A stretch of DNA of 64,000 nt, taken from NCBI RefSeq assembly GCF_027797205.1, contig NZ_CP115607.1, positions 1,541,288 through 1,605,287 on the forward strand. The letters are read 5' to 3'. The notes beneath the pieces were generated by a model that saw only the letters and a program-made list of their open reading frames with translations, was not told the DNA's origin and did not search any database. The first letter of the stretch is position 1, and each line of letters opens with the position of its first letter. Source of the stretch: Campylobacter sp. VBCF_01 NA2. Lineage in GTDB: Bacteria; Campylobacterota; Campylobacteria; Campylobacterales; Campylobacteraceae. This document shows positions 8,378 through 29,400 of the stretch, piece by piece. Made by a program: the position numbers and the translations under genes.

Positions 8378-8426
8378 TTATTTTTGTTTTTTATAAAATT
8401 TATCAAAATTTTACAAAGGAGAAAAT

Positions 8427-9011: not shown

Positions 9012-9021
9012 AGGAGAAAAG

Positions 9022-13792: not shown

Positions 13793-14290
13793 TTAAGGCA
13801 CGAAAATATTCCCACCGGCGCGCGGATTTAGCGGATCGTCGCCGTATTTGTTAGCTCCGTCGGTGCCTTTTAAAATCGTAGAGATAAAAATAAAAATTAT
13901 AAGCCCCACAGCAACAAATAAAAACAGCATAGCCAAAATTCTAATTCCATCAGCAAACATTATCCCAAGCACGCATAAAAGAAAAATTGCGCCAAAATAC
14001 CACCCGCTGATATCTCTATCATGCAGTCTTCTCCACAAAACCGCAAATGATGGCACAAGCAAGCCCAAAGCAACCACGCTAGCTACGATTCCTATGACCT
14101 CTGGGTTGCCGTTTTTGTCAAAGCCCAAAACGATATTTGTGCCAAGCACAGCGTCGATTACGGAGGTTGCGACATTTACTAAAACGCTAAAAAGGTAAAA
14201 CCACCAATATTCGCTTCTGCTAGCCCTGCCAGAAAATGTGGCGTATTTTTGTTTGAGGCAAACGCTAATCGCCTCGCCAAAACTCATCAT
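13793..14290 (-). CDS. DUF805-family inner membrane protein
   Basis: SGRASRSEYWWFYLF motif characteristic of DUF805 (YhaH-like), with several TM helices. Confidence 0.7.
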   Translation of the reverse strand: MMSFGEAISVCLKQKYATFSGRASRSEYWWFYLFSVLVNVATSVIDAVLGTNIVLGFDKNGNPEVIGIVASVVALGLLVPSFAVLWRRLHDRDISGWYFGAIFLLCVLGIMFADGIRILAMLFLFVAVGLIIFIFISTILKGTDGANKYGDDPLNPRAGGNIFVP

Positions 14291-14299
14291 TTTTTCTCC

Positions 14300-15385
14300 T
14301 TATGATTTGATTTTGTTAAATTCGCTAATGTGAAATTTCAAATTCGTAAAATAATAGTTGTTTTTCGAAATTTCGAAATTTCGGCTATCTTTGGCACAAG
14401 CAATGATAAAAAGCGAATTTATAATCGAGCAAATTTGCACCGCGATTATCGCTAAAATCGGATTAAAATAGACTAAAACTAGCCCAATCACGCACGAGAG
14501 CGCATATACAAAAAACGCCTTAACGAAAATTTCGCACCCGCTCGTCTGGAAAAGCTCTTTGTAAATCAGCAGAGCAAAGCATGCGCCAAGCCCCGTAAAT
14601 ACTGCGCCGAAAACAAATACAACCAGGCTTTTATCCCCAAACATCATCATCAAAAACGGGATTAGCGCAAGGCCGTCAAATACGACAAAAAGGGTTAAAT
14701 TTCGCAAAAGCGTCTTTGAGCAAATTGTGCTAGCGATGAAATACGCGCTCATTGCAAGGCAGATTTGCCCCGCTGTTGAGGCGAGTTCGGCGCCATTAAT
14801 TTTGGTGCCAAAAATGTTTAAAACTGCCATTAAAATCAAAAGTCCGCACCCAATGTAAGCTAGCTGTCTAGCCGAGGCTAAATTCGTGCTTTTTTCTTCG
14901 AAATTTAGGCTTTGGCTGGGATTTTCGCTGGGATTATCGCTTAAATTTTCGATCTCGCACCCTGCGCTAAGATTTGCGCTATCTACCATTTTTTCTAAAT
15001 TGAAAAAATCGTGTATTATCCACGCCAAATAGGCTAAATTTGGCAGTGCAAAGACCATAATCGGTTTTATTAAATTTTCCCTAGCCCTAAGTGTATCTTG
15101 GTCGTCAAATTCGAGGCTTGGCCTTATGGAGCGCAAAATTTCGAGCGCGCTATCGTTTGATATCAAAGCATACGCCACCAAAAAGCAGACAAAGATGATA
15201 AACCCAAGTCCGCCAAGAAGCTGGAAAATCGCGCTTACATTTTTTTTCAGATAAAATCTGTGCGCGCTAAAAACCCCTAGTGTCAAATAGAGCGTGTAGG
15301 CGGTGTTGAGGTGAAATTTAGGCGCGTTTTGCGGGAGGGTTTGCATGGATTTCCTTTTTTTAAATTTGGGCGAAATTATAGCCAA
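14300..15385 (-). CDS. Polytopic membrane protein with N-terminal TM2-like domain
   Basis: GVFSAHRFYLKK motif (TM2 domain). The remainder is hydrophobic, multi-TM, with a low-complexity linker. Confidence 0.5.
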   Translation of the reverse strand: MAIISPKFKKRKSMQTLPQNAPKFHLNTAYTLYLTLGVFSAHRFYLKKNVSAIFQLLGGLGFIIFVCFLVAYALISNDSALEILRSIRPSLEFDDQDTLRARENLIKPIMVFALPNLAYLAWIIHDFFNLEKMVDSANLSAGCEIENLSDNPSENPSQSLNFEEKSTNLASARQLAYIGCGLLILMAVLNIFGTKINGAELASTAGQICLAMSAYFIASTICSKTLLRNLTLFVVFDGLALIPFLMMMFGDKSLVVFVFGAVFTGLGACFALLIYKELFQTSGCEIFVKAFFVYALSCVIGLVLVYFNPILAIIAVQICSIINSLFIIACAKDSRNFEISKNNYYFTNLKFHISEFNKIKS

Positions 15386-15464
15386 ATTTTAAAATTTTGC
15401 GCCAAAAAATAATTTATTAAATTTTATGAGATAAAATGTGTTTTATTTTTTACAAGGAGAAAAA

Positions 15465-15962
15465 ATGCAAGTAAAATTTTTAGGAAACCCCGTAAATTTG
15501 GGCGGAAATGAAGTAAAAGTCGGCGAGGCTGCGCCAGAAGTTGTAGTCGCTGGCAAGGATTTAGAAGATATCGTAATTGGCAAAAGCGAGAAAAAACAAA
15601 TCATCGTAGCCGTTCCGTCGTTAGATACGCCAGTTTGCGCTAGCGAGGCTCGCAAATTCAACGAAAAAGCAGCAAGCTTGCCAAATACCGAAGTAATCGT
15701 GGTTTCAATGGATTTGCCGTTTGCAATGGGTAGATTTTGCACGACAGAGGGTATCGAAAACTTGCGCACAGCGAGCGATTTTAGAGCGAAAAAATTCGCC
15801 AAAAGCTATGGAATTTTAATCGAAGATAGCGCGCTAGCAGGGCTAAATGCAAGAGCGGTTTTCGTCATCAGCGGCGGCGTAATTGCATACAAAGACATCA
15901 TGGCTGAAATCACCGAAGAGCCGAACTACGAAGCAGTTTTAGAGGCTGCAAAAAACGCATAA
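15465..15962 (+). CDS. tpx: Thiol peroxidase Tpx (atypical 2-Cys peroxiredoxin)
   Basis: VPSLDTPVCA peroxidatic Cys motif and a resolving Cys in FCTTEG. RBS caaggagaaaaaATG. Confidence 0.85.
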   Translation: MQVKFLGNPVNLGGNEVKVGEAAPEVVVAGKDLEDIVIGKSEKKQIIVAVPSLDTPVCASEARKFNEKAASLPNTEVIVVSMDLPFAMGRFCTTEGIENLRTASDFRAKKFAKSYGILIEDSALAGLNARAVFVISGGVIAYKDIMAEITEEPNYEAVLEAAKNA

Positions 15963-16017
15963 ATTTTTAGCTTCCCCCTTAAAAATACAGCGAAATTCCG
16001 CAAATTTTGCGGAATTT

Positions 16018-17535
16018 CTAATTTAGATTTAAAATTTCCTTCGCTCTTGTTTTTTTGTATAAAATCGACTTCAAATTCTGCATTTCACGCTCGTTTAAAG
16101 GGCTAGCGTCAAGCAGTTTGGCGCATTTTTTTTGCCTAGGGTTTTCGCAAAATTTAGGCGCGAAAAGCTCGCTAATACCGCCGTGAGTTTCTCCGCTTTG
16201 GAGCGGATTTTCGTGGCAGGCCTCGCAGGATTTGCCGATTTTTTGCACGCTATGAGGCGAAAACGGCTTCCAAACCTCGAATCTCTCGCCACTCTCGCCA
16301 AATTTAGCCACGCTAGCATTTTCATCTTTTATGCCAAGATTATAGCCAAACACAGGACGCGCTAGGGCGATTTTGCCGTTATTTTTGCGCACCAAAAGGA
16401 CATTTTCGAATCGTTCTAAACTAAACGCGCTATGCCAAATTCCAGGTTTTCTCTCGCCTCCAAGCGTGCGCGAAAACGGCGCAGGGCGCGTATTTTGGCG
16501 CAGGGCGCGTGCGTTAAATCGCTTGACGCTTGCGTCAAATTCGATTAAATTTTGCCAGTTTTCGTAATCCTTGCTAAAATCAAGCATAGCATTTAGTTCG
16601 TAAAAACTCCCGCCCCACGCGCTGTGGCAGGTGGCGCACTCCAAATTTTGGTGGAATTTGTGCGAGGTGTTATTTTGCGTGGCGGTTTCGTGGCAAGCCT
16701 CACAGCTTTTGGTTTCGCTCATTTTGTGGCAATCCGCGCACACTAGCCCCGCGCTAAAATGTGCGTCAGGGCGCAAATTTGCGTATGTCACGCCATGCCG
16801 TAGCCCTGGGAAATTTCCATTTTTTTGCAACGGCGTGCGGTAGTCTTTGTGTGTATTTTGTGGGAAAAGCCCCATAAAATCGGTGCCGATGAAGTATTTG
16901 TTGTGGCAAGAGGCGCAAACTTCATTATCCGCGCGCGAGAGCGTGTGTGTGCGCGAGTGTGGGCGCGCGCTAGTATTCGCGTCGCTGCCGCTGTATTGTG
17001 CGCTGGGTGCGTAGCTAGCGTGGCATGCCATGCAACCCTTTCCGTGAGCCGAAAAAAGGGATTTCTCGCCGTTATCATAGGCGTGGCATTTTAGGCATTT
17101 GCGCTCCACGAAGTCCGCCACCACGCGCTCTTTCGCGCTTAAATTTGGCAAATTTTGGCTTAAAAAATCTTGCAAACTAAGATTTAAATCCATGTTAAAT
17201 GCGCTAAAAATCGTTTTTATCTCGTTTTTGTGCGTGAAATGGTTGCTTTTTTCAAATTCGCTGATTTGCTTGGCGTGACAGCTGCCACAAAACTTGCCAT
17301 AATGCGCGGGGCTTGCTGGGTGAGCGATGATATTTTCGTGCGAAAATCCGCCAAATTTGGCTAAGCTTTGCGGGAAATCTGAGGGTGAAATTTTGCTTTT
17401 GTGACAACTTTCGCATGAAAAATTGTGATTTTGCGCGTCAAATTTCTCCACGCTATGGCAGTTTTCGCAGGATAAATTTTGAGAAAAAGCGAAATTTAAA
17501 AGCGCAAAAAATATCAAATTTATCACTCTAAACAT
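16018..17535 (-). CDS. Periplasmic decaheme c-type cytochrome
   Basis: Signal peptide and ten CXXCH motifs (CENCH, CESCH, CGSCH, CLKCH, CMACH, CASCH, CADCH, CEACH, CATCH, CEACH). Last gene of the eight-gene operon. Confidence 0.8.
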   Translation of the reverse strand: MFRVINLIFFALLNFAFSQNLSCENCHSVEKFDAQNHNFSCESCHKSKISPSDFPQSLAKFGGFSHENIIAHPASPAHYGKFCGSCHAKQISEFEKSNHFTHKNEIKTIFSAFNMDLNLSLQDFLSQNLPNLSAKERVVADFVERKCLKCHAYDNGEKSLFSAHGKGCMACHASYAPSAQYSGSDANTSARPHSRTHTLSRADNEVCASCHNKYFIGTDFMGLFPQNTHKDYRTPLQKNGNFPGLRHGVTYANLRPDAHFSAGLVCADCHKMSETKSCEACHETATQNNTSHKFHQNLECATCHSAWGGSFYELNAMLDFSKDYENWQNLIEFDASVKRFNARALRQNTRPAPFSRTLGGERKPGIWHSAFSLERFENVLLVRKNNGKIALARPVFGYNLGIKDENASVAKFGESGERFEVWKPFSPHSVQKIGKSCEACHENPLQSGETHGGISELFAPKFCENPRQKKCAKLLDASPLNEREMQNLKSILYKKTRAKEILNLN

Positions 17536-19331
17536 TTCGTCTCCCCTGCCCTAAATTTGGCCTTTGAGGCGTTAAAATCGGCATAAATTTTATCATCGTA
17601 GCGATCGTGACAGATAGCGCAGGCATAGGCGTCAAGGATTTTTTTCATTTGAGTTAAATTTAGCGTGGAATCGTTTTTAGAAATGATTTGATTTTGCGCT
17701 CCTGTGGGGCTAGCAAAGGCGTCAAGGGCGAAATTTAACTCGCCAAAATTTGCCAAATTTGGACTAAATGAAATCTCGCCGTTTTTATAGCCCAAAACAC
17801 CGCGCCCAAGCCCTAGCGAAGACGGCGAGAAGTGGCAAGCGGCGCAGGTTTTGCTCTTGCCAACGCTGTGTTGCGCCCAGCTGGCTAGGCTAAGGGCGTC
17901 AAAGTGCTTCGTGGCGCCATTTTCGTAGATACTAGCCACGACTTGACAGCCTGGGGCGAGGTTTGCGATTTTGCCGTCATTTCTCACGCCCAAAGCTGGG
18001 TCTTCGAAGCGCAAAAAACTACGCATTTCGCTCCACGCACCCTCGCTGTATTCGCCCTTTTGCCACTCAAACTGCTTTGCGCCCGCAAATCTTTGCTCGT
18101 GGCAACCAAAACAGCTTGCCACACTTTTTTCGTGGCAGGCTTGGCAGGATAAATTTGCGTGCAAAGGCTCGTGTGCTGGGTGTTTTAGCGCTGAAATTTC
18201 AAATTTTGCTCCGTCTTTTTTGCGCGTAAGGACTGCTTTTTCGCCCACTTTGGCGACATTGTAAAGCGGGAAATTTCCCTTTTTTGTGTAGGCAATGAGC
18301 GCGCTATCTGGGATATTTGGATTTGTTTTGGCTAAATTTCGCGCCATCTCGTTTGGTGGGGCAAAATTTGGCGCGTGGCAGTCCTCACATGCGATAATCA
18401 CGGCGTGGCGCATATTTGCGTGGTTTTTCTTATCGCCCATTACCCCAAGGCTAGTGTGGCAATCCACACACCCTAACCCTGCCCTTTCATAGTGAATATC
18501 GGCGCGCAAATCGTGAAAATGGCGCCCGTCGGAGAGCGTATGGCTCTGCTCGAAAGGCGCCTTGCTTCCCTCGCTTTCGAATTTTCCATAATACGCAAAA
18601 CCAATGCGAGCCGAGCGGTTGTGGCAGGCTAGGCAGTTTTGGCTAGGGATTGCGGTGGAAAATCGGGTGTGGGTTTTGGGCGCAGTGTTTGGGGAGGTTG
18701 CGTGCGCGCTGGAATTTACACTGGAATTTATGCTTAAATTTGGCGCAGAATTTGCATTTTTGCTAGCAAAAAACGGGGAGAGCAAGAAATTTTCATCTAA
18801 ATTTGAAGCCTTATGACACGCCCCACACCCGCCACCTTTGGCGATATTTTGATTTATAAAAACCTCTTTTTCTTGCGAGATATGACAACTGGCGCAGGCT
18901 TTGGCGTAGTGGTCCTTGGCGAATTTTTCGATTTGCTCTGCGTTAAAATCAGAGCTTGCGCCCTGCTTCGCCCACTCACCTAGCAAATTTTGCTTGATTG
19001 GATTTTGGGTTTGCATTACTGTGGTGCTAACGCGGGCGATTTGGTCCTTGTGACAGCGCGCGCAACGGCTTTTGGCGTTTTCTAGCGTGGCTGGATTTGG
19101 GATTAGGGCGATGTGAGCGAGCGATTTTTCGCTAGCAATCTCGTTGCCCCCATGGCAACTCTGACAGGCAACCTCATCGTGTGAGGGGCTTAGTGAGCCG
19201 TAATTTTCGTGGCAGGCGGTGCATGAGTTTATCTGCGAAAATGCGCTTACGCAAAAAAACAAAATAGCAAAATTTGCGAAAATTTTAAAATTTAGCCCTT
19301 TTAAAATTTCGCAAATTCTTCTCACTAGCAA
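17523..19331 (-). CDS. Periplasmic dodecaheme c-type cytochrome
   Basis: Signal peptide and twelve CXXCH motifs. Overlaps neighbours by 4-13 nt, consistent with translational coupling. Confidence 0.8.
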   Translation of the reverse strand: MLVRRICEILKGLNFKIFANFAILFFCVSAFSQINSCTACHENYGSLSPSHDEVACQSCHGGNEIASEKSLAHIALIPNPATLENAKSRCARCHKDQIARVSTTVMQTQNPIKQNLLGEWAKQGASSDFNAEQIEKFAKDHYAKACASCHISQEKEVFINQNIAKGGGCGACHKASNLDENFLLSPFFASKNANSAPNLSINSSVNSSAHATSPNTAPKTHTRFSTAIPSQNCLACHNRSARIGFAYYGKFESEGSKAPFEQSHTLSDGRHFHDLRADIHYERAGLGCVDCHTSLGVMGDKKNHANMRHAVIIACEDCHAPNFAPPNEMARNLAKTNPNIPDSALIAYTKKGNFPLYNVAKVGEKAVLTRKKDGAKFEISALKHPAHEPLHANLSCQACHEKSVASCFGCHEQRFAGAKQFEWQKGEYSEGAWSEMRSFLRFEDPALGVRNDGKIANLAPGCQVVASIYENGATKHFDALSLASWAQHSVGKSKTCAACHFSPSSLGLGRGVLGYKNGEISFSPNLANFGELNFALDAFASPTGAQNQIISKNDSTLNLTQMKKILDAYACAICHDRYDDKIYADFNASKAKFRAGETKCLE

Positions 19332-19660
19332 CCCTCAAACTGCGCTGGTGCGCCACTAGGTTTCGGCGCGGCGGCTTCGCTTTCATCGGCTTTGGCGCCA
19401 AATTCGTCTATCATACCTTCATCGGCTAGGCGTTGGATGACATCATCATAGCTTTCCCACGCTTTTTTGTTGTAAGCGTCTGCTTGAATCGCCTTTTTTG
19501 CGTATGCCCTAGCAAGTGTGAGATTATTTTTTGCCACAGCTTCGCGTGATAAATTTACAAAATGCTCCGCCTGCGCTTTTGAAGTATTGTAGCTTTGCAA
19601 ATTCTCCGCAAAACCAAAACTGCAAAGTAAAACCATGCTTAAAATTATCTTTTTCATCAT
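19325..19660 (-). CDS. Small secreted protein (TPR-like helical), operon member
   Basis: Signal peptide MMKKIILSMVLLCSFGFA. Helical repeat-like region and an Ala/Pro-rich C-terminus. Confidence 0.5.
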   Translation of the reverse strand: MMKKIILSMVLLCSFGFAENLQSYNTSKAQAEHFVNLSREAVAKNNLTLARAYAKKAIQADAYNKKAWESYDDVIQRLADEGMIDEFGAKADESEAAAPKPSGAPAQFEGC

Positions 19661-19666
19661 TTTCTC

Positions 19667-20287
19667 CTATGAATTTATCGTCACATAATAAACATTTGGT
19701 TCAAGTCCGTCGCTCTCTTTTAGGCGAGTTATACTTGTCGCCTTAGCCAAAATTTGCGAAACATCACTATTTGGGTCATTTAAATCGCCAAAATTTCGCG
19801 ATTTTCCCACGCAGGTGGTTACACAAGCCGGAAGCAAACCTTTATCCACTCTTGGGGCGCAAAATGTGCATTTATCGACGCTTTGCTTGTGTTCGTCGTA
19901 ATATCTGGCATTATACGGACAGGCTACCATACACGCCTTGCACCCTATACAAAGAGAGGGATCGACGATGACGATGCCGTCTTTTTCGCGCTTGAAACTA
20001 GCTTCTGTCGGGCAAACTGCCACGCAAGGGGAGTTTTCGCAGTGGTTACAAAGCACAGGCAAGAAATTTAAAATCGGATTTCCTGCGTTGTCTTCGTTTT
20101 CGACTTCAAAAACCCTTGTGCGATACGCTTCTTTGAAAAGCGGCACTTCCCACTCGGTTTTACACGCTACATAACACGCATCGCACCCGATACAGCGATC
20201 GCCGATAATCACCATAGCTAGGTTTTTTTCTTTTTTGTGATTTTTATTTATTAGTGAGTTCATCTTACGCCCTTTCAAGTCTAACAA
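19667..20287 (-). CDS. 4Fe-4S ferredoxin-type electron-transfer subunit (PsrB/PhsB/DmsB-like)
   Basis: Four Cys clusters (CIGCDACYVAC, CNHCENSPC..CP, CIGCKACMVACP, CTFCAPR). The true start is probably at MNSLINK (about 20263). Confidence 0.8.
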   Translation of the reverse strand: MLDLKGRKMNSLINKNHKKEKNLAMVIIGDRCIGCDACYVACKTEWEVPLFKEAYRTRVFEVENEDNAGNPILNFLPVLCNHCENSPCVAVCPTEASFKREKDGIVIVDPSLCIGCKACMVACPYNARYYDEHKQSVDKCTFCAPRVDKGLLPACVTTCVGKSRNFGDLNDPNSDVSQILAKATSITRLKESDGLEPNVYYVTINS

Positions 20288-22523
20288 AGCCGTTGTTTAA
20301 GCCGCTACAACCACTAACAGGATCAATGTCGTTACTACAAAAATAAACATCGCTAATGCCTTTATCAAAGCCGTTACTCCACTCTTTGCTAACATGCCCA
20401 AAGCCGTGGTGGATAAAGACATTGCCTTTGGTTATTCGCTTTGTGATTTTTATATTTTGCGGTTTTGATTTGAGCCCTGTTTTAGCATTTATCATTATGA
20501 CTTTATCGCCAGTTTTTAAACCTAAATTTGCAGCATCATCAGGATTTATCCAAATCGGGCTATCATCTTCAAGTTCGAGTAAGAGCTTGTTATTTTGGCT
20601 TCTTGCATGTGAGTGAGCAGGGCCTCTACCAAATAAAAGTCTAAATTCGCCTTCTTTTGGCTGTGGCGGTGCTACCCAAGTAGGCAGTGGCGCGCAGACA
20701 TCGCCGTATTCCTCATACATTTTTTCCATATCAGGGTTGTATAGATGAATTTTGCCCGTGCTTGTCGGGAAGCTTAGTGGTTTTCCGCTACTTTGCGGAT
20801 ACGCATCGGCTAAATAATCGCACAAAATGCCGTCTTTTTCAAATTTTTCTTTATCTTCGGGGCTGAGTGAATTTACGAAATTATTTATCGCGTCGCTTGG
20901 CGAAATGGTAAAATACTCGTCCATATCAAAGCGTTTGCAAATCCCACGCACTATGTCAAAAACATGCTTAGTATCGTATAGCGGCTTAATCGCAGCCTTT
21001 CTTACAGCCACAAACGGCACATCGTATTTTTGGATATATGGGCCGTCGTCTTTTTCTAAATATGTGCTTTCAGGCAAAACTATGTCGCAATATGCGCAAA
21101 AATCGTTCATCTGTGTATCTATCGACATAATAAAATCTAGCTTTTCGATTGATTTCATGACGCCGTTTGCTTCGACTGCCGTGTGTCCTAATGGATTTGT
21201 ATCGTAGGTCAGCCACGCTTTTATCGGATATGGTTGTTCGCTTAAAGTCGCGCGATAAATTTCGCCACTTAGTCCTAAATTTGGCGGATTAAACGGCCAC
21301 CTTGTGCCAACGCCATCAGCCCTTGGCTCCCTTACAGCCGGTGCTTCATCATCTTTTGGGAGCTTAGCTAAATTTATACTTTGATTTACCCAAGTTCCGC
21401 CCTTTACGCCGTAATTTCCCATAATCGCATTTAAAATCGCAATTGCTCTTGCTGTTTGCGTGTCGTTTGCGTATCTTGAAAATCTACGCGGTGCGATAGC
21501 TAGGACATGTGGAGCAAATCTGGCAAATTCCCACGCTACTTCTTCAATAGTTTCAGCCTTTATACCGCAAATTTCTTCTGCCCATTTTGGGGTGTATTGT
21601 TTGACATGACGGGCTAGTTTATCAAAGCCGTAGCAGTATTTATTGATAAATTCCATATTTGCTAGATTATCTCTAATTATGACATGGATTAGCGCTAGTG
21701 CTAGTGCCATATCGCACCCCGGTTTTATGCGAAGCCATTTGTGCGCTCTAACGGCACTTTCGCTCTGGCGTGGATCTACATAGACAAGTTTTGCGCCATT
21801 TGCTAGGCCTTCCATAAAATCTCTTGCTTCTCTGACTTGAATCGCTCCTGCCATATTTCTGCCAAATAAAATCATATATTTGGTGTTTGCCATGTCGTAG
21901 TTTTCATGACCCCCGATACCGCCGCCGCCAAATGTCAAAGACCAGCCAATCGCTCTACTGCCACGACACTCAGAAAATGAAGCGTAGCTTACATTTGGAG
22001 TGCCAAGCAAGCTAGCAAATTTGTGAAAATAAGAAGAACAGCTTCCATGAGCAAAGGCTGCAATGCTTTTTGCGCCGTATTTGTCGATGATTTTTTCTAA
22101 ATTTTCATGCACGAAGTCAAACGCTTCGTCCCAGCTGACCTTTTTCCATTTGCCTTCGCCCCGTTTGCCGACTCTAATCATCGGGTATTTTAAGCGATCT
22201 GGATCGTAAGTAGAATAAACCCCTGCATTTCCCTTAGCGCAAATCGTGCCGTAATTGTATGGATTTAGCTTGTTTCCTTCGATTTTGTGAATTTTGCCCT
22301 CTCTTGTAAAAACATTTACGCCACAATTCCAAAAGCACATTTCGCAGTAATTTGGAGTTTTTACGCCTTCGTCGTATTCTAATAAATTTGAAAGCTCGGG
22401 CGAATTTTTGTGCGTTTTTGCCATTAGCGGATTTGGAAGCCCTGTGATACCTGCCGTGCTGGCAACTGCGACGCTAGAAGCCATTTTTAGGAAATTTCGT
22501 CTTGTTATTTTAAGCTCTCTCAT
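20265..22523 (-). CDS. Tat-exported molybdopterin catalytic subunit, polysulfide/thiosulfate/tetrathionate reductase (PsrA/PhsA/TtrA) family
   Basis: Twin-arginine signal TRRNFLKMASS. N-terminal CxxC..C..C FeS0 motif (CEMCFWNCGV...C). Size and architecture fit MopB-family enzymes. Confidence 0.8.
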   Translation of the reverse strand: MRELKITRRNFLKMASSVAVASTAGITGLPNPLMAKTHKNSPELSNLLEYDEGVKTPNYCEMCFWNCGVNVFTREGKIHKIEGNKLNPYNYGTICAKGNAGVYSTYDPDRLKYPMIRVGKRGEGKWKKVSWDEAFDFVHENLEKIIDKYGAKSIAAFAHGSCSSYFHKFASLLGTPNVSYASFSECRGSRAIGWSLTFGGGGIGGHENYDMANTKYMILFGRNMAGAIQVREARDFMEGLANGAKLVYVDPRQSESAVRAHKWLRIKPGCDMALALALIHVIIRDNLANMEFINKYCYGFDKLARHVKQYTPKWAEEICGIKAETIEEVAWEFARFAPHVLAIAPRRFSRYANDTQTARAIAILNAIMGNYGVKGGTWVNQSINLAKLPKDDEAPAVREPRADGVGTRWPFNPPNLGLSGEIYRATLSEQPYPIKAWLTYDTNPLGHTAVEANGVMKSIEKLDFIMSIDTQMNDFCAYCDIVLPESTYLEKDDGPYIQKYDVPFVAVRKAAIKPLYDTKHVFDIVRGICKRFDMDEYFTISPSDAINNFVNSLSPEDKEKFEKDGILCDYLADAYPQSSGKPLSFPTSTGKIHLYNPDMEKMYEEYGDVCAPLPTWVAPPQPKEGEFRLLFGRGPAHSHARSQNNKLLLELEDDSPIWINPDDAANLGLKTGDKVIMINAKTGLKSKPQNIKITKRITKGNVFIHHGFGHVSKEWSNGFDKGISDVYFCSNDIDPVSGCSGLNNGFVRLERA

Positions 22524-23650
22524 TTTTCACTCTCCAAATTTAAAAATGTTTTTCCAAGTGCGTAAATAAAGAGCATTACGCCAATGCCTGAGATAAAAAT
22601 CGTGATTTCTGCCACGCTTGGGCAGTATGAGCCAAACTCTATCTTGCCTAAAAATTCGCTCTCTACTCTTACTAGCTGACCGCCCACAATGCCGTCAAAC
22701 CTAGCAAAAAATACGCCGATAATGGCTAAAATTCCAGCCAAAAATGAAATTTTTAAATTTTGAAATTTAGACAAAATAAGCAAAATCATCGGCAGCAAAA
22801 TTCCAATGCAAATTTCAAAAAAATAGAAATTAAACGACAAATTTCCGTTTGTAAAAACTTCGAAATTTTTTGCCAAATAACTTCCTGCGCCATAGCTTGA
22901 AATCACTGCGTTCCAAAAATTTATAAATAAAACAGCCAAAAGAAGCAAAAACATAAGAATATTCAAATTTCGCAAAATTCGCTCATTTAGGGCTTTTTTG
23001 CTTAAAATTACAAAGGCAAAAATCACGCTTATGCCACAAATCAAAGCTCCTAAAATAAATGAAATGGTAAAGCTTGGCGTATGCCAGATTGGTCTAGCTG
23101 AATTTACGGCAAAGACCATTGAAAGTGTGCTAAAAGCGATTATTCCCATTATAAATGCGACAATTCCTGCGTAAAACGAAGCTTTTTCGCTGTTTTTTAA
23201 CATTAAAATTAGCTCGATTATTAAAAGCGGAGTTTCGATGAGATAAAAAGTGCTCATCCACCAAATCGGGCTTTCTACTGCGAAATTAAAGTAATATCGC
23301 ACGAAGCGCAAAACTTGCAGTTTAAACGGGCTTCCAAGCTCCCAAAAAATCAGCCAAAATGCCGCTAAAAGCGCAGCAATAGCTAAAAGCTGTAAATGGC
23401 GTGAAATTTTAGAAAATGCGTGAAATCCAAAGAGATGATCAGCCGTAGCGATTGTGGCAACTCCCACGCTAATGCCCACAAAAAAGGCATATCCCATAAG
23501 CAAAAGCCCAAGCGGAACCTCGCGGCTGACATTGTAGCTAGCCTCTTGGCCATTTAAAAACACGCTACAAATCCCAATAAGCCCCACTGCGCACAGCGCA
23601 AGTGATAGAAAAAGAAGCCCAAATTTCGGGGTTTTGGCGACTTTTGTCAT
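22520..23650 (-). CDS. NrfD/PsrC-type polytopic membrane quinol-interacting subunit
   Basis: About 9-10 predicted TM helices, of a size typical of NrfD-family anchors. Overlaps both neighbours. Confidence 0.7.
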   Translation of the reverse strand: MTKVAKTPKFGLLFLSLALCAVGLIGICSVFLNGQEASYNVSREVPLGLLLMGYAFFVGISVGVATIATADHLFGFHAFSKISRHLQLLAIAALLAAFWLIFWELGSPFKLQVLRFVRYYFNFAVESPIWWMSTFYLIETPLLIIELILMLKNSEKASFYAGIVAFIMGIIAFSTLSMVFAVNSARPIWHTPSFTISFILGALICGISVIFAFVILSKKALNERILRNLNILMFLLLLAVLFINFWNAVISSYGAGSYLAKNFEVFTNGNLSFNFYFFEICIGILLPMILLILSKFQNLKISFLAGILAIIGVFFARFDGIVGGQLVRVESEFLGKIEFGSYCPSVAEITIFISGIGVMLFIYALGKTFLNLESEK

Positions 23651-24192
23651 CTTTGCTCCTTTAAATTTGATATTAAAAATTTGGCAAAATTTAAAATAAA
23701 CTCAAATTCTTTTAAATTTTCAAAATTTGCTAAATTTTTACTCAAAGGCTCTAAAAAGTCTAAAAATTTAGTAAATTTCAAAAATTTTTCCCACTCGCCC
23801 TGCTCTGCTAAAATCGCGCAAAATGCGAGTAAATTTGAGGCGTGGTCGCAGTTTTTTTCTACCACAAAACCACAAATTTCATAAAATTTGCAAATTTCAT
23901 TATAACTCTCGCCAAACATTTTTTTATCTAACCACACCCCAGCTAGAAGCGAAGTGCCGAATTTGGCTGAGTTTAAATCAAAATAAAAAATGTAATTGCT
24001 GATAATTTCGTCTAAATTTGGCGTTTTTAAATCGTTAAATTTGAAATTTGAAAATTTATTGAAGCGCTTGGCAAATTCGCCGTTTGCAAATTCGCCAAGC
24101 GCGCAGTATTTCTCGCGCCAACCCTCCGCTGGAAAAGCGAGCAGGTCGGCGCATAAGTCTAGGCAATCAATCGAAATTTGATTATTTTTCAT
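23647..24192 (-). CDS. TorD/DmsD-family redox-enzyme maturation chaperone
   Basis: About 180 aa with a DHASNLLAFCAILAE motif resembling the TorD family E(x)PDHxxxELxF signature. Its position next to a Tat molybdoenzyme supports the call. Confidence 0.55.
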   Translation of the reverse strand: MKNNQISIDCLDLCADLLAFPAEGWREKYCALGEFANGEFAKRFNKFSNFKFNDLKTPNLDEIISNYIFYFDLNSAKFGTSLLAGVWLDKKMFGESYNEICKFYEICGFVVEKNCDHASNLLAFCAILAEQGEWEKFLKFTKFLDFLEPLSKNLANFENLKEFEFILNFAKFLISNLKEQR

Positions 24193-25096
24193 CGCCTTTT
24201 AGCACTTTTCTTTTTGGCAAGTTCGAATACTCGACCATGCTTGCTTCGTAGTTTTTGACTTTGTCATTTCCCATGATATATTTTGTCGCAAACCAGCCAC
24301 CACTTGCGTGCCAGCCTGTGTTGCAATACCAAATTTGTGGTGCGTTTGGATCTAGACCTGCTGTTTTAAATAGCTCGCCAACAGCTTCTTTATCGGTGTT
24401 GATATAAAAAACGCCGTCGTTTTCTTTGGCAAGTTTGCCGATAAAGATATTTCCATCAACGCCCTCTAAGTGCCCTGCTTTGGCTGCTTTTGGGTGAGCT
24501 TTTTCGCCAGAGTATTGAGCTTCGATTCTGCCGTCAATTAGCGCTACGCTGTTTGTAACCACAGCCTCGTCGATATCGTAAGCAGTCGCAACGATGTCTT
24601 TGTTAAATTTAGTGATTTTAAAATCGCTTTTTTCTGGTGTGACGGCCTCTGTGCTTAGCTCGCCACCAGCTTTTTTCCAAGCGTCAATTCCGCCGTTTAA
24701 AATCGCTGTGTTTGTAAGTCCGTAGTATTCAGATACGAATAGAGCCAAAGTTGAAAGCGTATAATCAGGAGCGGCTTTTGCGTCGTTATAGAAAACTACT
24801 GCGCTAGTATCTTTGATACCGCTTTTTTGAAATAATCTCTCAACCGTAGTCGGAGAAGCGATAAATCCTGGCATTTCGCCTCTTGCCTCTCTGAAATCAG
24901 CCTCTTTCCAAGCAACTGCACCTTTGATATGACCTGCGCCGTATCCTTCGCCTTCTTGAAGGTCGATTAAAACTAGGTCTTTATCAGCCAAATTCGCTTT
25001 TAGCCACTCGACATCTACGACCTTGTTTTGTGGTAAATCTAGGGCAAATGCGCATGTGCAAGCAGCCGCTAGTAATGATGAAGTAAGTAATTTCAT
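24182..25096 (-). CDS. Periplasmic tandem-rhodanese sulfurtransferase (Sud/thiosulfate-sulfurtransferase-like)
   Basis: Signal peptide, two rhodanese-like halves and a catalytic Cys loop (YCNTGWHASG). First gene of the operon. Confidence 0.7.
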   Translation of the reverse strand: MKLLTSSLLAAACTCAFALDLPQNKVVDVEWLKANLADKDLVLIDLQEGEGYGAGHIKGAVAWKEADFREARGEMPGFIASPTTVERLFQKSGIKDTSAVVFYNDAKAAPDYTLSTLALFVSEYYGLTNTAILNGGIDAWKKAGGELSTEAVTPEKSDFKITKFNKDIVATAYDIDEAVVTNSVALIDGRIEAQYSGEKAHPKAAKAGHLEGVDGNIFIGKLAKENDGVFYINTDKEAVGELFKTAGLDPNAPQIWYCNTGWHASGGWFATKYIMGNDKVKNYEASMVEYSNLPKRKVLKGDEK

Positions 25097-25203
25097 GATA
25101 TCTCCTTAAAAAATGAAATTGTTGCAAAAAAAAATTGTAACAAAATTTAGTAATATTAAATTAAAAATTTATCGAAATTTTATAAGTTAGATTAAAATTT
25201 TCC

Positions 25204-25227
25204 GTGATTTTGTCACAAAAAATGTGA
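25204..25227. promoter_or_regulatory. Overlapping dyad symmetries (gtgattttgtcac / tcacaaaaaatgtga) in the divergent intergenic region between the rhodanese-molybdoenzyme operon and cmeA
   Basis: gtgattttgtcacaaaaaatgtga. TGTGA/TCACA half-sites arranged as two overlapping palindromes. Confidence 0.4.
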
Positions 25228-25344
25228 AAAATTTAGAAATATTAAATTTTCATTTACTTTTGTGTTAATAATTTGTTATGCAGAATTTGGATAAAATCGA
25301 CAGCTTTTTACTTTAATTATTAAAATTTAATAACCGAGGTTTGT

Positions 25345-26445
25345 ATGAAGAAAATTTTCTCACTAATTGCGACGCTAGCACTGCTTAGCGGATGTTCGTA
25401 TTTCGAAAAAAAAGAAGAGGGCGCAGGAGGGGGTGCCAAGGGCGCTGGCGGTATGCCGCCGCTTCAAGTAGCTGTTTTTAAAGCCCAAAAATCCGATGTT
25501 CCAATCGCACTAAAATTTAACGGCGAAACCGCGAGCGATTTAGATGTAACGCTAAAATCACAGGTTTCTGGCACGATAGAAAAACAGCTTTTCACCCCTG
25601 GCGTGCGCGTAGAAAAGGGCGAGGGGCTCTATGAAATCGACAAATCCCGCTACCAAGCGATTTTTAATAGCGCAAAAGCTAGCCTAAACAACGCTAGCGC
25701 AGATTACGAGCGCGCTAGGAAATTAAAGGCGAGCAATACCATTTCAGCGCGCGAATTTGACGGCGCAAAATCAGCTTACGAAGTGGCTAAGGCAAATTTC
25801 GAACGGGCGAAAATCGACCTTGATAATGCCCTTGTCAAAGCCCCGTTTGACGGTATTGTAGGCGATACGCAAAAAGACACTGGCTCGTTTGTGGGCGTGG
25901 GTGAAAATCTAGTCAGACTTACAAAACTAAATCCAATTTATGTGAAATTTGGAATTTCTGATACCGATAAGATGAAAATTGATAGAAATTTAGCCAGCAG
26001 CGATTGGTATATGAAAAATACAAAGGCTACAATTTCCTTTAATGACAAAATTTATGAAGGAAATGTAGTTTTCATCGATAGCGTCGTAGATAGCGCGACT
26101 GCGAGCGTGAGCGCCAAAGCGCAATTTAACAACCTAAATTATGAAATTCAACCAGGAATTTACACTAGAATTTCAGTCGATGGTTTCGTGCAAAAAGATG
26201 GCTTCCAAATTCCGCAAATCGCAGTTTTGCAAGATTTAAGCAACTCTATCGTTTATGTCGTAGATGCAAACAACACTGTGGCTAAAAAAATCGTAAAAGT
26301 TATAGCTCAGGATTCTACGACGATGACCATTTCAGAGGGTTTGAGCGAGGGCGATTTGATTGTTTTGGATAATTTTTCAAAAATTCAAGTTGGTGCTAAG
26401 GTAACCCCGCTTCCGCCAGAAACAGACGCGACAAAGGCTAGGTAG
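25345..26445 (+). CDS. cmeA: RND efflux periplasmic adaptor (membrane fusion) lipoprotein, CmeA-like
   Basis: Lipobox LSGCSY and a hairpin/biotinyl-lipoyl/beta-barrel MFP architecture. Followed by an RND pump gene. Confidence 0.85.
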   Translation: MKKIFSLIATLALLSGCSYFEKKEEGAGGGAKGAGGMPPLQVAVFKAQKSDVPIALKFNGETASDLDVTLKSQVSGTIEKQLFTPGVRVEKGEGLYEIDKSRYQAIFNSAKASLNNASADYERARKLKASNTISAREFDGAKSAYEVAKANFERAKIDLDNALVKAPFDGIVGDTQKDTGSFVGVGENLVRLTKLNPIYVKFGISDTDKMKIDRNLASSDWYMKNTKATISFNDKIYEGNVVFIDSVVDSATASVSAKAQFNNLNYEIQPGIYTRISVDGFVQKDGFQIPQIAVLQDLSNSIVYVVDANNTVAKKIVKVIAQDSTTMTISEGLSEGDLIVLDNFSKIQVGAKVTPLPPETDATKAR

Positions 26446-26451
26446 GCAAGT

Positions 26452-29400
26452 ATGTTTTCTAAATTTTTTATCAATCGCCCAGTTTTCGCAAGCGTTATTT
26501 CGATTATTATCGTTATTGCTGGAACGATTTGTCTATTTATCGCCCCTGTGGAGGAATACCCGCAACTAACCCCGCCTCAAATTTCAGTTACAGCCACATA
26601 TAGTGGCGCAGACGCGCAGACTATCTCAGATACCGTCGCTTCGCCACTAGAAAACGCAATTAACGGCGTCGATGATATGATTTATATGAGTTCATCATCT
26701 AGCTCGTCAGGTAGGGCAAATATCAGCGTGTTTTTCAAGGTCGGCACCGATCCGCAAGAAGCACTCGTAAATGTAAATAACAGAGTAAATCCAGCCCTAA
26801 CCACGCTTCCAGCCGAAGTGCAAAGAATGGGCGTTAGCGTTACGGAGCGTTCATCATCTATACTTTCTGCGTTTTTCTTTTATGACCCAACAGGTCAAAT
26901 GAGCCCACTTGAAATCCAAAACTATGTCAGCATTAATGTCGTCGATGAGCTAAAACGCGTTAGCGGTGTGGGCGACGCGCAGGCCCTTGGCACGAAGGAT
27001 TACTCAATGAGAATTTGGGTAAATCCAGGACTTATGGCCAAACACAATGTCGTATCATCTGACATAATCGCAGCCATTAGAGAGCAAAACAGCCAATACC
27101 CAGCCGGAAAGCTAGGCGAGCAACCAAACGATTTAGGTAACCCTTATGTCTATGCAATCCAGCCAGAGGGGCGTTTGAAAACGGTCGAAGAGTTCGAAAA
27201 TGTAATCATTAGAGCCAGTGATGATGGTAAATTTTTGCGTGTAAAAGATGTCGCTAGGGTCGAGCTTGGGGCTGAGAGCCTTATCATCAATGGTAAATAC
27301 CAAGGATACGACGCAACGCCAGTTTTCATCTATCAACAAAACGGCGCAAACGCCATTGCTACGCTTGATGCTGTGACTGCGCGTTTAGAGCAGTTAAAGC
27401 AAAATTTTCCAGGTGCGCTGACTTATAGCAACGGATACGACACGACAGAATTTGTCAAGGTTTCTATCGAAGAGGTTATTCATACTTTTATCGAAGCGAT
27501 GATTTTGGTCGTTTTGGTTATTTATATGTTCTTAGGAAATTTCCGCGCGACGATTATTCCAATGCTAGCGGTGCCAGTATCTATTTGTGGCGCGTTTATC
27601 GGAATTTACGCTTTTGGATTTTCGATAAATTTAATTACCCTTTTCGCCCTAGTTTTGGCTATCGGTATCGTCGTCGATGACGCTATTATCGTTATCGAAA
27701 ATGTGGAGAGAATTTTGCATGAAGAGCGAAATTTAAGCGTCAAAGAGGCCACGATTAAGGCAATGGACGAGATTGTAAGTCCGGTAATTTCAATCGTGCT
27801 TGTTTTGGCGGCGGTTTTCGTGCCAGTTGCTTTTATGGAGGGCTTTGTCGGCGTTATCCAAAGACAATTCGCGCTCACACTTGTCTCATCTGTGGTTTTC
27901 TCCGGATTTGTCGCCCTTACTCTAACCCCTGCGCTGTGTGCGCTTTTACTTCGTAAAAAAGAGGCCGAGCCGTTTTGGTTAGTGCGTAAATTTAACGAAT
28001 TTTTCGATTTTTCAACCCGCCTTTTCTCAGCAGGTGTTGCAAAAATTTTGCGCCATGTGATTTTATCGTTGTGCCTTGTGGGAATTATTATTTTTGTGAT
28101 GTTAGAGTTATTTAAAATTACTCCGGGCGGACTTGTGCCAGCCGAGGATAAAGGCTATGTAATGGGCTTTTCGACACTTCCGTCGGCTAGACCTTTGGTA
28201 GCTACTGAAAAGCACATGGATTTCTTGCGTGGCACACTTTCACAAAACCCAAATGTCGAAGCAATCACCACAATCGCGGGATTTGATATGATGGCAGGTG
28301 GTGCTAGGGAAAATTCAGGCGTATTTTTCTCTAAACTCAAACCTTGGGGGGTCCGTCCTGAGGCAAACCAATCAGCCCAATCAATCGCAAACGCGCTAAC
28401 TGGACAGCTTTTTGTCATGGATAGAAGCGCGATGACCTTTGCCCTAACCCCACCTCCAATCAATGGTCTATCAATGACTGGTGGATTTGAAGTGTATGCA
28501 GAAAATACTACGGGCAAAAACTATCAACAAATCGCCGATGATATGGCGCGAATAGTCGCCAAAGCTTCGCAAAATCCAGCTTTGCAAAATGTCCGCTCTA
28601 CGCTAGATGTAAATTTCCCGCAATACAATCTAAGCCTAGATAAGGAAAAAATCAAAATGCTTGGAATTTCAATCCCTGATATTTTTACGACGATAAATTC
28701 GACTATCGGACAATACTACATAAACGATTTTAACCTTTTGGGTAAGACATACCGCGTCTATATGAGAGCAGAACAGCTCTTCCGCGATACGCCAAATGAT
28801 TTAAGGACGCTTTATGTGCGCTCGGCTAGTGGAAATTTGGTTTCGCTTGATTCGGTTGTAAATTTAGAACGCGCCAAAGGCCCTGATATCGTCGATCGTT
28901 TTAATGGTTTCCCAGCAGCTAGACTTATGGGCGATCCTGCCCCTGGATATACTTCTGGTCAGGCAATTGACGCTATTAGAGATACGATTCTGGGCGAATT
29001 CCCTACTGGATACACACTTGGCTGGTCAGGCACGGCTTATCAAGAGGTAAATGCAGCAGGAACTGGCGCAAAGGCATTTGCGTTTGGACTTTTGTTTGTA
29101 TTTTTGATTTTGGCGGCGCAGTATGAGAGGTGGCTAATGCCAATGGCGGTTCTTACAGCCGTGCCATTTAGCGTGTTTGGTGCGCTTTTATTCACATGGG
29201 CTAGGGGATTAAATAACGATATATATTTTCAAATCGGACTTATTTTGCTTATCGGACTTGCGGCAAAAAATGCGATCTTAATCGTCGAATTTGCTATGCA
29301 AGAGTATCAACACGGCGGAAAAAGTATCGCAGAAGCGGCGATTAGTGCAGCAAAAATGCGTTTTAGACCGATTGTTATGACATCTTTGGCTTTTGGTCTT

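Follow-up and report, generated by a model that had tools for sequence, protein, structure and literature searches.

An eight-gene operon of Campylobacter sp. VBCF_01 NA2 encodes a molybdenum (Mo) enzyme of the polysulfide reductase (Psr) type together with two large multiheme cytochromes c. It is read at 25096..16018 on the minus strand of the 64-kb stretch that we analysed (the window; contig NZ_CP115607.1, positions 1,541,288 to 1,605,287). We propose, with a probability of roughly 0.55, that the operon supports menaquinol-driven respiration of polysulfide or elemental sulfur (S0) and represents a reduced, Campylobacter-type variant of a sulfur (or selenium) respiration cluster found in several phyla. 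The main argument comes from a comparison with the ext cluster of Geobacter. Judged by homology, two unrelated polysulfide-type reductases are embedded in one common accessory set, which argues that the window operon serves sulfur or selenium respiration and that its cytochromes functionally belong to it. The genes and the candidate signals of the operon are as follows.

24182..25096, minus strand: two-domain periplasmic rhodanese (sulfurtransferase), 304 amino acids (aa); Pfam Rhodanese in two stretches, N-terminal signal peptide visible.
23647..24192, minus strand: chaperone of the TorD/NarJ class for maturation of the Mo subunit, 181 aa; Pfam Nitrate_red_del.
22520..23650, minus strand: PsrC, NrfD-type integral-membrane, quinol-interacting anchor, 376 aa; Pfam NrfD.
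20265..22523, minus strand: PsrA-type molybdopterin catalytic subunit (Psr/Phs/Srr clade), exported by twin-arginine translocation (Tat), 752 aa; Molybdop_Fe4S4, Molybdopterin and Molydop_binding.
19667..20263, minus strand: PsrB, ferredoxin subunit with four [4Fe-4S] clusters; Fer4_11, 16 Cys.
19325..19660, minus strand: small secreted helical protein, 111 aa, with a flexible tail ending QFEGC-COOH; no Pfam or NCBIfam family.
17523..19331, minus strand: 12-heme periplasmic cytochrome c, distant ExtM homologue, 602 aa; 12 CXXCH, NCBIfam ExtM.
16018..17535, minus strand: 10-heme periplasmic cytochrome c, distant ExtN homologue and paralogue of the 12-heme protein, 505 aa; 10 CXXCH, NCBIfam ExtN.
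15992..16018, minus strand: terminator-like hairpin at the 3' end of the operon, with a 12-bp stem, a 3-nt loop and a T-rich tail; a consensus match only.
25239..25268, minus strand: weak promoter-like site 5' of the rhodanese gene, TTAACA-18-TAATAT, 9/12 matches.

The ext cluster of G. sulfurreducens, extHIJKLMNOPQS, encodes the rhodanese ExtH, the porin ExtI, the small protein ExtJ, two cytochromes, ExtM (GSU2935) with 12 hemes and ExtN (GSU2934) with 10, the Rieske protein ExtO and the cytochrome b ExtP (PMC5877670). ExtKL is MccSep, a pentaheme selenoprotein polysulfide reductase essential for S0 respiration, in a report that does not discuss ExtM or ExtN (PMC13510729, August 2026). In the literature ExtMNOPQS is the Geobacter Cbc6, a predicted quinol:cytochrome c oxidoreductase without an assigned role. 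We found that PsrABC occupies the place of ExtKL in the Ext clusters of Deferribacterota. The Deferribacter desulfuricans cluster runs H-I-J-[PsrA-B-C-x]-Rieske-P-Q-S with M and N transcribed divergently, and the Seleniivibrio cluster runs H-I-J-M-N-PsrABC-Rieske-cytochrome b-cytochrome c. The D. desulfuricans proteins passed the NCBIfam cut-offs for ExtM (886 bits, cut-off 800), ExtN (457, cut-off 200), ExtI (550, cut-off 150) and ExtS (262, cut-off 100), and fell just short for ExtH (156, cut-off 200), ExtJ (44.6, cut-off 52.5), ExtP (232, cut-off 290) and ExtQ (137, cut-off 150).

The two cytochromes of the window are, by alignment, distant homologues of ExtM and ExtN. The 12-heme protein matched NCBIfam ExtM (NF040943) with 241.7 bits (E 1.3e-71), short of the equivalog cut-off of 800, and the 10-heme protein matched ExtN (NF040967) with 92.9 bits (E 1.8e-26), short of the cut-off of 200. 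Against the Deferribacter ExtM the 12-heme protein was 29.5% identical with 36/36 heme-motif residues in register, and all 10 heme-motif positions of the 10-heme protein aligned with the Deferribacter ExtN. The 12 heme sites were invariant across 79 sequences. Outside them, seven His, Met106, Met298 and Cys462 were invariant and Cys600 was kept in 78/79; Cys462, Met106 and Met298 are retained even in true ExtM. These Cys and Met residues would leave room for His/Met or His/Cys hemes, which we offer as a lead only. The 10-heme protein has just 5 invariant or near-invariant (>=97%) non-motif His for 8 core hemes, and the ExtN of cable bacteria has been flagged as possibly catalytic, with one or more penta-coordinate hemes (PMC11976967). 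Neither cytochrome had a significant match among solved structures in single-sequence and profile searches, the best being a tetraheme stretch of flavocytochrome c3 (E 0.001) and NrfA (E 0.4), and CXXCK or CX15CH motifs were found in neither. Kinship to NrfA, Otr, MccA/SirA, HAO or MtrC-type cytochromes is not supported by these searches. An earlier note on this DNA had called for a comparison with tetrathionate reductase, MccA and HAO-type enzymes; no such relation was found in these searches, and the NCBIfam matches were to ExtM and ExtN instead. We agree with that note that 22 hemes lie outside the textbook composition of Psr, Phs or Ttr operons.

Two NCBIfam models, NF040967 (ExtN) and NF040968 ('FeS_ExtO'), scored nearly equally on the same decahemes (457/461 bits in Deferribacter, 92.9/92.3 in the window), and the Rieske proteins of these clusters matched neither. 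The NF040968 'ExtO' model seems to describe the ExtN cytochrome rather than the Rieske protein named ExtO in the Geobacter paper.

The gene fusions of ExtM-family members suggest what kind of complex these cytochromes belong to. Members of about 900 aa carried an N-terminal cytochrome b (b6/petB, PF00033) fused to the 12-heme domain in 6/6 examined (P0183, P0186, P0196, P0216, P0240 and P0270). In the long clusters of Campylobacterota the 12-heme gene begins before the cytochrome b gene has ended, and the cytochrome b of one such locus, L004, matched ExtP at 77.7 bits. Because of these fusions and overlaps, ExtM-type cytochromes are best read as the c-type arm of a bc-type complex. Since the closer relatives L002, L093, L092 and L018 have a reduced, Rieske-less form as well, the pair evidently functions with no bc module dedicated to it. 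By the same comparison, the window operon is a reduced form of the longer cluster with Rieske and cytochrome b genes.

The neighbourhoods of related Mo subunits were examined in nine contexts. Relatives of the window subunit were at least 52% identical in Campylobacterota, 46-50% in Hippea and about 42% or less in Deferribacter, Flexistipes, Seleniivibrio and others. The contexts were these.

L085, Sulfurospirillum sp. 1612: full cluster with Rieske and cytochrome b.
L086, Hippea sp. KM1: full cluster with Rieske and cytochrome b.
L087, Deferribacter desulfuricans SSM1: PsrABC inside an Ext cluster.
L088, metagenome contig: no NrfD; PsrA and PsrB with the small protein, the rhodanese, cytochrome b and the cytochrome pair.
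L089, Seleniivibrio woodruffii: Ext cluster with PsrABC.
L090, Thiohalomonadaceae, 39% identity: a different, cytochrome b-type anchor; pair absent.
L091, Flexistipes: PsrABC inside an Ext cluster.
L092, Campylobacter-like contig: the pair lies upstream of the rhodanese; Rieske and cytochrome b not seen, the contig being truncated upstream.
L093, Campylobacter-like contig: identical eight-gene order, without Rieske and cytochrome b.

The pair was thus present in 8/9 Mo-centred contexts, spanning Campylobacterota, Hippea and Deferribacterota (Mo subunits about 40% identical or more). A distribution of the cytochromes unrelated to that of the Mo module, which the earlier note had named as evidence against its linkage, was not what we found, and no characterised enzyme was found whose operon carries these cytochromes. 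On the L088 contig (a JGI metagenome, 2030-10054), PsrA, PsrB, the small protein ending in Gly-Cys and the rhodanese are divergent from cytochrome b and the pair; with neither NrfD nor a Rieske gene there, cytochrome b is the sole membrane partner. In L085 (3848-5737 and 13494-14429), Mo-cofactor genes (ThiS/MoaD-like, MoaE and MoeA) lie just upstream of the cluster, and a gene of the homocysteine S-methyltransferase family is inserted between the cytochrome b and 12-heme genes.

The pair was also followed from the cytochrome side. In a scan with one genome per species, 153 relatives were found and 80 loci were kept, in Campylobacterota (Sulfurospirillum, Arcobacteraceae, Nitratifractor, Helicobacteraceae), Desulfurellales/Hippea and Desulfobacterota. 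At 50% clustering, 157 clusters had E <=1e-30. A 10-heme (or 8-heme) gene lay directly downstream of the 12-heme gene in 68/71 loci with enough downstream sequence, and the two cytochromes form an obligate pair. Upstream content was counted in the 43 cytochrome-centred loci with at least 6.5 kb upstream. A Psr module preceded the pair in 16 of the 43, and 15 of these 16 also had Rieske and cytochrome b genes between the small gene and the 12-heme gene; a detectable two-domain rhodanese alone was upstream in 3, and none of these was found by the homology screen in 24. The pair is a separable module, occurring also without a Mo enzyme. One of the 24, L028 (Arcobacteraceae, complete chromosome OY782506.1, 5113-12951), is Mo-free and sulfur-themed: an SQR-like flavoprotein is followed by two half-size 'sulphur transport' proteins of the YeeE/YedE type, by a small protein that ends ...DMGC, by a rhodanese with one domain, and by 12-heme and 8-heme cytochromes. 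In the Desulfobacterota loci L050-L083, the 12-heme protein has 11 CXXCH motifs and one CX4CH (CGK..CH), which replaces a canonical motif.

The Mo subunit was placed by ranking its scores against hidden Markov models and PDB structures. It carries a twin-arginine motif (TRRNFLK) and an N-terminal CxxCxxxC..C four-Cys FS0 motif (CEMCFWNC...C). The best solved relative was Thermus PsrA (2vpw_A, 4e-139, 468 bits, residues 57-752); other solved structures reached at most 200 bits, the next being acetylene hydratase and formate dehydrogenases at 1e-58 or weaker. In the alignment with 2vpw_A, Cys186 corresponds to the Mo ligand Cys173, His159 to His145 and Arg346 to Arg332, this His and Arg presumably having the active-site roles assigned in structural work on Thermus PsrA. 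PhsA ranked first among the NCBIfam families (503.8 bits), ahead of DmsA (291), ArrA (189) and TtrA (99.5), and the PhsA score is below the cut-off of 694 bits of that equivalog (NF012032, Salmonella-type thiosulfate reductase). Against QrcB it scored 171 bits (cut-off 440), and the Mo-ligand Cys is retained, so it does not look like a non-catalytic subunit of the QrcABCD or alternative complex III (ACIII) type. Because PsrA is its best relative, the Mo-ligand Cys and the His and Arg align, and PhsA ranks first, we consider the subunit, on these alignments and scores, a catalytically competent member of the Psr/Phs/Srr clade, nearer Psr/Phs than Arr, Ttr, Dms, Nap or Fdh. This bears out the earlier assignment of the core to a Psr/Phs-class complex. 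The earlier view that the substrate cannot be read from the sequence is also upheld, since catalytic-subunit phylogeny does not separate PsrA, PhsA and SrrA (PMC12949373). According to the literature, srr operons are told from psr operons by additional rhodanese and chaperone genes.

The remaining members of the Mo module agree with this placement. PsrB matched Fer4_11 with 107.8 bits and has 16 Cys, with NCBIfam matches to TtrB, DsrO and NrfC that were all below the cut-offs. PsrC matched Pfam NrfD with 73.1 bits, had an NCBIfam match to DsrP and was 89% identical to the PsrC of L002. The chaperone matched Nitrate_red_del with 29.3 bits (cut-off 22.2) and occupies the same position in L002, L004, L085, L086 and L093. 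A periplasmic rhodanese and a TorD-like chaperone do accompany the core, as had been suggested, with Pfam matches to both and the catalytic Cys of the rhodanese kept. The C-A-B gene order is present as described, and the description of it as unusual did not hold: it is normal for its clade, the Deferribacterota relatives being A-B-C.

The rhodanese matched Pfam Rhodanese with 69.7 bits and, weakly, the NCBIfam models for 3-mercaptopyruvate sulfurtransferase (56 bits) and ExtH (50 bits, cut-off 200). Its catalytic loop is CNTGWHA, and the loop cysteine, Cys258, was kept in 17/17 homologues from related loci. The 111-aa protein matched no Pfam or NCBIfam family, and a large-database search returned 15 close relatives, all unnamed. 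Its mature form has one Cys only, which is the last residue, and the ending QFEGC was invariant in 13 homologues, behind a variable low-complexity linker. In an AlphaFold2 (AF2) model the helical core had a predicted local distance difference test (pLDDT) score of about 80 and the tail, residues 87-111, one below 50. An open reading frame (ORF) of 70-160 aa ending in Gly-Cys was found near the cytochrome pair in 34/37 eligible Campylobacterota and Desulfurellales loci; in the Desulfobacterota loci about 0.7% of ORFs of that size have such an ending. The conservation indicates that the small protein is a member of an unannotated family with a C-terminal Gly-Cys. In Psr-linked loci the ending is ...(F/Y/L)EGC and in Psr-less loci an acidic ...D(M/L)GC, and the two forms are probably homologous (hhalign 83%). 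In Deferribacter, a 111-aa protein after PsrC has the helical body (hhalign 96%) and no terminal Cys, and the ExtJ-like protein ends ...QLQGC, sharing with the window protein only the terminal Q-x-x-G-C. The body of the small protein was rejected as an ExtJ homologue, as the hhalign probability was 3.5% and NCBIfam gave no ExtJ match. Given the invariant terminal Gly-Cys, the single mature Cys, the low-confidence tail and the nearby rhodanese with Cys258, the small protein is probably, by analogy with SoxY, a swinging-arm carrier of sulfane sulfur that partners the rhodanese.

The gene calls fit a single transcriptional unit. The earlier note had described eight tightly packed genes on the minus strand, and all eight ORFs were found again at the same coordinates (304, 181, 376, 752, 206, 111, 602 and 505 aa), with 12 and 10 canonical CXXCH motifs in the 602- and 505-aa proteins, in agreement with its count. 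The junctions between the longest ORFs were -11, -4, -4, -23, +6, -7 and -13 nt. The longest psrB ORF starts with TTG at 20287 (19667-20287, 206 aa). The true start is probably the ATG at 20263: a single nucleotide then separates psrB from the psrA stop, and the gene matches the 198-aa orthologue called in L002. The same gene order recurs in independent genomes (L002 and L093, with longer forms in L004 to L046), so the arrangement is not due to chance. The hairpin at 16018 is the strongest terminator-like site within 15400-25500 and begins at the stop codon of the 10-heme gene; the counts of promoter-like and terminator-like sites in the region were not above shuffled expectation, and only the position of this strongest hairpin is informative. 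The promoter-like site sits in a 248-nt divergent intergenic region common to the rhodanese operon and a resistance-nodulation-division (RND) efflux operon. One transcript for all eight genes is plausible from this layout. In current annotation the Mo subunit is a 'molybdopterin-dependent oxidoreductase' and the 10-heme cytochrome a 'hypothetical protein'; about 500 relatives of the 12-heme protein are unnamed or 'hypothetical', and the exact 12-heme sequence of the window was absent from the protein collection searched. Such Campylobacter isolates come from cow rumen epithelium and were grown anaerobically on nitrate, in a paper that is silent on the operon (PMC9894753).

Within the operon, the cytochrome genes and the psr genes seem to differ in history. 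PsrA of the window is 95% identical to that of L002 and 83% to that of L093. Between L002 and L093 the cytochromes share 72% and 62% identity, and those of the window are about 52% and 45% identical to either. GC content at third codon positions (GC3) is 0.36-0.44 in the first six genes and 0.51-0.52 in the two cytochrome genes (overall GC of the window, 0.414). The possibility that the cytochromes are merely fast-evolving was rejected, as the identities contradict the psr tree and GC3 jumps at the junction. It looks as if the cytochrome pair (16018-19331) was replaced by recombination from an unknown donor and has a history unlike that of the psr genes (19325-25096). The surroundings also change: the operon is flanked in the window by Tpx-like and RND efflux genes (15438-15962 and 25345-29598), in L002 by glnA and lon, in L092 by a giant WGR-domain protein and a ParE/Phd toxin-antitoxin, and in L093 by a SIR2-like gene. 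Because the neighbourhood differs in each Campylobacter-like lineage, the comparison suggests that the eight-gene cluster is a mobile cassette.

Under the proposal of polysulfide or S0 respiration, polysulfide (from S0 and sulfide, both plausible at the sulfide-rich rumen wall) would be bound in the periplasm by Cys258 of the rhodanese, forming a persulfide. From there the sulfur would go to the Mo centre of PsrA, either without an intermediary or by way of the 111-aa protein, whose C-terminal Cys would serve as a swinging arm. After maturation by the TorD-like chaperone and Tat export together with PsrB, PsrA would reduce the sulfane sulfur to sulfide, with electrons flowing from menaquinol through PsrC and the four iron-sulfur (FeS) clusters of PsrB. 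The ExtM/ExtN-type pair would be the c-type arm of a bc-type quinol oxidoreductase whose dedicated Rieske and cytochrome b genes have been lost here. It would most likely link PsrB/PsrA to another periplasmic electron source, such as the housekeeping Qcr; alternatively, it may be a second, possibly catalytic, outlet for carrier-bound sulfur.

Several observations weigh against this proposal. In menaquinone organisms a bc-type Rieske centre lies at about +100 mV or higher and cannot deliver electrons to polysulfide at about -260 mV. A route from Rieske/cytochrome b through ExtMN to Psr is therefore not straightforward, nor does the proposal account for the presence of both PsrC and Rieske/cytochrome b in the long clusters. 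No Rieske or cytochrome b gene was found in the 64-kb window by tblastn with the L004 Rieske and cytochrome b queries, and the docking partner of the pair here, PsrB/PsrC or the housekeeping Qcr, is putative. In both Desulfobacterota loci examined (L057 and L070), the pair stands alone among housekeeping genes (topA, smc, pheT). Both cytochromes score below every NCBIfam Ext cut-off; they (242/800, 93/200) and the rhodanese (50/200) lie far under their cut-offs. The AF2 model of the 12-heme protein (30-sequence alignment) had a mean pLDDT of 53 and was too poor for use. The additional rhodanese and chaperone genes are exactly the mark of srr operons, NCBI names the Ext families 'selenite/tellurite reduction operon', and Seleniivibrio, which carries Ext and Psr, is a selenate and arsenate respirer. 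Finally, most Deferribacteres with Psr clusters do not reduce S0 (PMC6896113).

These points bear differently on the alternatives. The extras typical of srr operons raise the main rival substrate: the enzyme could be an Srr-type respiratory selenite (or tellurite) reductase, with the rhodanese and the Cys-terminal protein handling perselenide and the Ext-type cytochromes supplying or dissipating electrons. We regard this as unlikely. The srr operon differs from psr only by its rhodanese genes (srrE, srrF) and chaperone gene (srrD), much like the extras here, the NCBIfam Ext label points the same way, and an Ext and Psr cluster is present in Seleniivibrio woodruffii. MccSep also supports selenite-dependent oxidation of methyl viologen, and extI mutants are impaired in selenite and tellurite reduction (PMC5877670). 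However, the demonstrated physiological role of the Geobacter cluster's reductase is S0 respiration, and in the Arcobacteraceae variant the neighbouring genes are SQR-like and for sulphur transport. Selenium is also scarce relative to sulfur in the rumen and most host habitats, and Hippea, Desulfurellales, Sulfurospirillum and Deferribacter are classic reducers of S0 or polysulfide. A Phs-like thiosulfate or tetrathionate reductase, with the pair as a second terminal enzyme that reduces sulfite or another product and one PsrB/PsrC serving both (compare NrfCD-NrfAB and MccCD-MccA), would agree with PhsA as the top NCBIfam family (504 bits), with the scores of PsrB on NrfC and DsrO and of PsrC on DsrP, and with the Psr homologue of Shewanella ANA-3, which reduces tetrathionate according to the literature. 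The 10-heme protein, with 5 conserved non-motif His per 8 core hemes, and the flag on ExtN as possibly catalytic (PMC11976967) fit it too. We nevertheless find it quite improbable: the PhsA score is under the equivalog cut-off, the cytochromes show no likeness to MccA, SirA, Otr or NrfA in sequence or profile comparison with solved structures, and they have no CX15CH or CXXCK. Hippea, an obligate S0 reducer, carries the full cluster.

The direction of electron flow could also be the opposite, with the Psr-like enzyme oxidising sulfide or polysulfide and reducing menaquinone, and ExtMN (with Rieske/cytochrome b, or with Qcr here) carrying quinol electrons to nitrate or O2 reductases. Such an arrangement would remove the thermodynamic problem of feeding polysulfide from a Rieske centre, and PMC6896113 mentions a suggestion that Psr acts as a sulfide dehydrogenase in some Epsilonproteobacteria. 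The Arcobacteraceae variant has an SQR-like flavoprotein instead of Psr, and the host, isolated on nitrate, comes from a sulfide-rich interface between oxic and anoxic zones. Full clusters, however, also occur in strict anaerobes (Hippea, Desulfurellales) that respire S0 and lack a high-potential acceptor, S0 reduction in Geobacter depends on the homologous cluster, and transfer from sulfide to quinone needs no cytochromes; we therefore hold the oxidative direction to be quite doubtful. Least probable, and in our view very unlikely, is that the pair is functionally independent of the Mo enzyme, as a general periplasmic electron store or a part for extracellular electron transfer that is merely co-operonic. 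The absence of a Mo enzyme from 27/43 cytochrome-centred loci, including the lone pairs of Desulfobacterota, and the cassette history unlike that of psr (incongruent identities, GC3 0.51 versus 0.36-0.44) speak for independence, but the pair is kept in 8/9 Mo-centred contexts across three phyla and several gene orders, the window lineage replaced the cassette instead of losing it, stop and start codons overlap tightly, and the locus has no outer-membrane porin or lipoprotein cytochrome for the export of electrons.

A bolder form of the sulfur reading, which we put forward tentatively and think rather unlikely when all its parts are taken together, is that the rhodanese, the Gly-Cys protein and ExtM/ExtN constitute one unrecognised multi-phylum periplasmic machine that reduces sulfane sulfur (or selenium). 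A heme of ExtN (few conserved His) or of ExtM (Cys462, two Met), either His/Cys-ligated or open, would reduce the persulfide on the carrier, and the quinone-linked partner would be interchangeable among PsrABC, MccSep, an SQR-like flavoprotein and Rieske/cytochrome b. In loci that have Rieske/cytochrome b, the Qo site could then give polysulfide a low-potential electron beyond the reach of menaquinol alone. If true, such a machine would address the old puzzle of what drives polysulfide respiration.

Each part of the locus has known counterparts. Like the Geobacter ext cluster, it combines a rhodanese, a 12-heme followed by a 10-heme cytochrome and a terminal polysulfide-type reductase in one cluster, as well as a small secreted protein ending in Gly-Cys, a feature seen in the Deferribacter ExtJ-like protein; sister loci of the window operon, though not the window itself, also have Rieske (ExtO) and cytochrome b (ExtP). 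Unlike in Geobacter, the terminal enzyme is a PsrABC with a Mo-bis(pyranopterin guanine dinucleotide) (Mo-bisPGD) cofactor and not the pentaheme selenoprotein MccSep, and the window locus is without the ExtI porin, ExtQ, ExtS and Rieske/cytochrome b. Neither an ExtI porin gene nor a pentaheme ExtKL/MccSep gene was found among the eight packed ORFs. With the PsrABC of Thermus thermophilus and Wolinella succinogenes it shares a Tat-exported Mo subunit with a Cys ligand, a four-cluster PsrB and an NrfD-type PsrC. A rhodanese-type partner in the periplasm is a further common feature: the Sud sulfurtransferase of Wolinella, which has one domain, delivers polysulfide sulfur, as the window rhodanese would do. 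The window locus differs from these Psr systems in its C-A-B order, its dedicated chaperone, its two-domain rhodanese and its three extra genes, encoding the Gly-Cys protein and 22 hemes of cytochrome c. SrrABCDEF of Bacillus selenitireducens likewise brings together in a single operon a Psr/Phs-clade Mo enzyme with its NrfD anchor, rhodanese-domain proteins and a TorD-like chaperone, but its host is Gram-positive, it has no multiheme cytochromes and its substrate is selenite.

Other systems, namely NrfABCD, MccABCD/SirACD, DsrJOP, QrcABCD and ACIII, resemble the locus in that NrfD and a periplasmic four-cluster ferredoxin are encoded beside multiheme cytochromes c, which gives a precedent for PsrB-type proteins exchanging electrons with such cytochromes. 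The window Mo subunit keeps the catalytic Cys, unlike QrcB and ActB, and the window cytochromes are unrelated by sequence to NrfA/NrfB, MccA, DsrJ and QrcA. The conserved Cys at the end of a flexible C-terminal arm recalls periplasmic SoxY, with its C-terminal GGCGG swinging arm, and the arm of DsrC; this is an analogy only, there being no sequence relationship, and in the window protein the Cys is the very last residue on an all-helical body resembling tetratricopeptide repeats (TPR-like). The parts are thus all of known kinds, and what appears new, judged by the literature searched, is the combination of a Psr-family enzyme, ExtM/ExtN, the Gly-Cys protein and the rhodanese, here without Rieske/cytochrome b. 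A linkage of Psr and ExtMN in Campylobacterota, Sulfurospirillum or Deferribacter was not described in the literature searched, most subscription journals being outside its reach.

Two other regions of the window were noted. Beyond the 3' neighbour of the operon, two minus-strand genes at 13793-15385 encode membrane proteins, one with DUF805 (165 aa) and one with a TM2 domain (361 aa), with no evident link to the operon. The patch of lowest GC in the window (0.31-0.33), at 52751-55182, contains a 392-aa ORF that matches no Pfam family and, after it, a 417-aa protein bearing an HNH_5 endonuclease domain, and it is possibly a small defence or mobile insertion amid housekeeping genes.

The occurrence of the accessory set around two different reductases is comparative evidence that it serves sulfur or selenium respiration rather than metal reduction, and it points to a gene set for such respiration that is common to at least three phyla and has interchangeable end enzymes. 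The locus bears on Geobacter ExtM, ExtN, the Cbc6 Rieske/cytochrome b, ExtH and ExtJ, which have so far been without an assigned role. It gives names to about 500 'hypothetical' cytochromes and links them to sulfur or selenium respiration, and it flags a family of terminal-Cys proteins as candidate sulfur carriers. It also sharpens the energetic question of how an acceptor at about -260 mV receives electrons from quinol. The carriers include cultured, genetically approachable strains of Campylobacterota, Hippea and Deferribacterota. For the abundant Campylobacter of the cow rumen wall, the operon predicts a respiratory capacity that has gone unreported, in a sulfide-rich niche.

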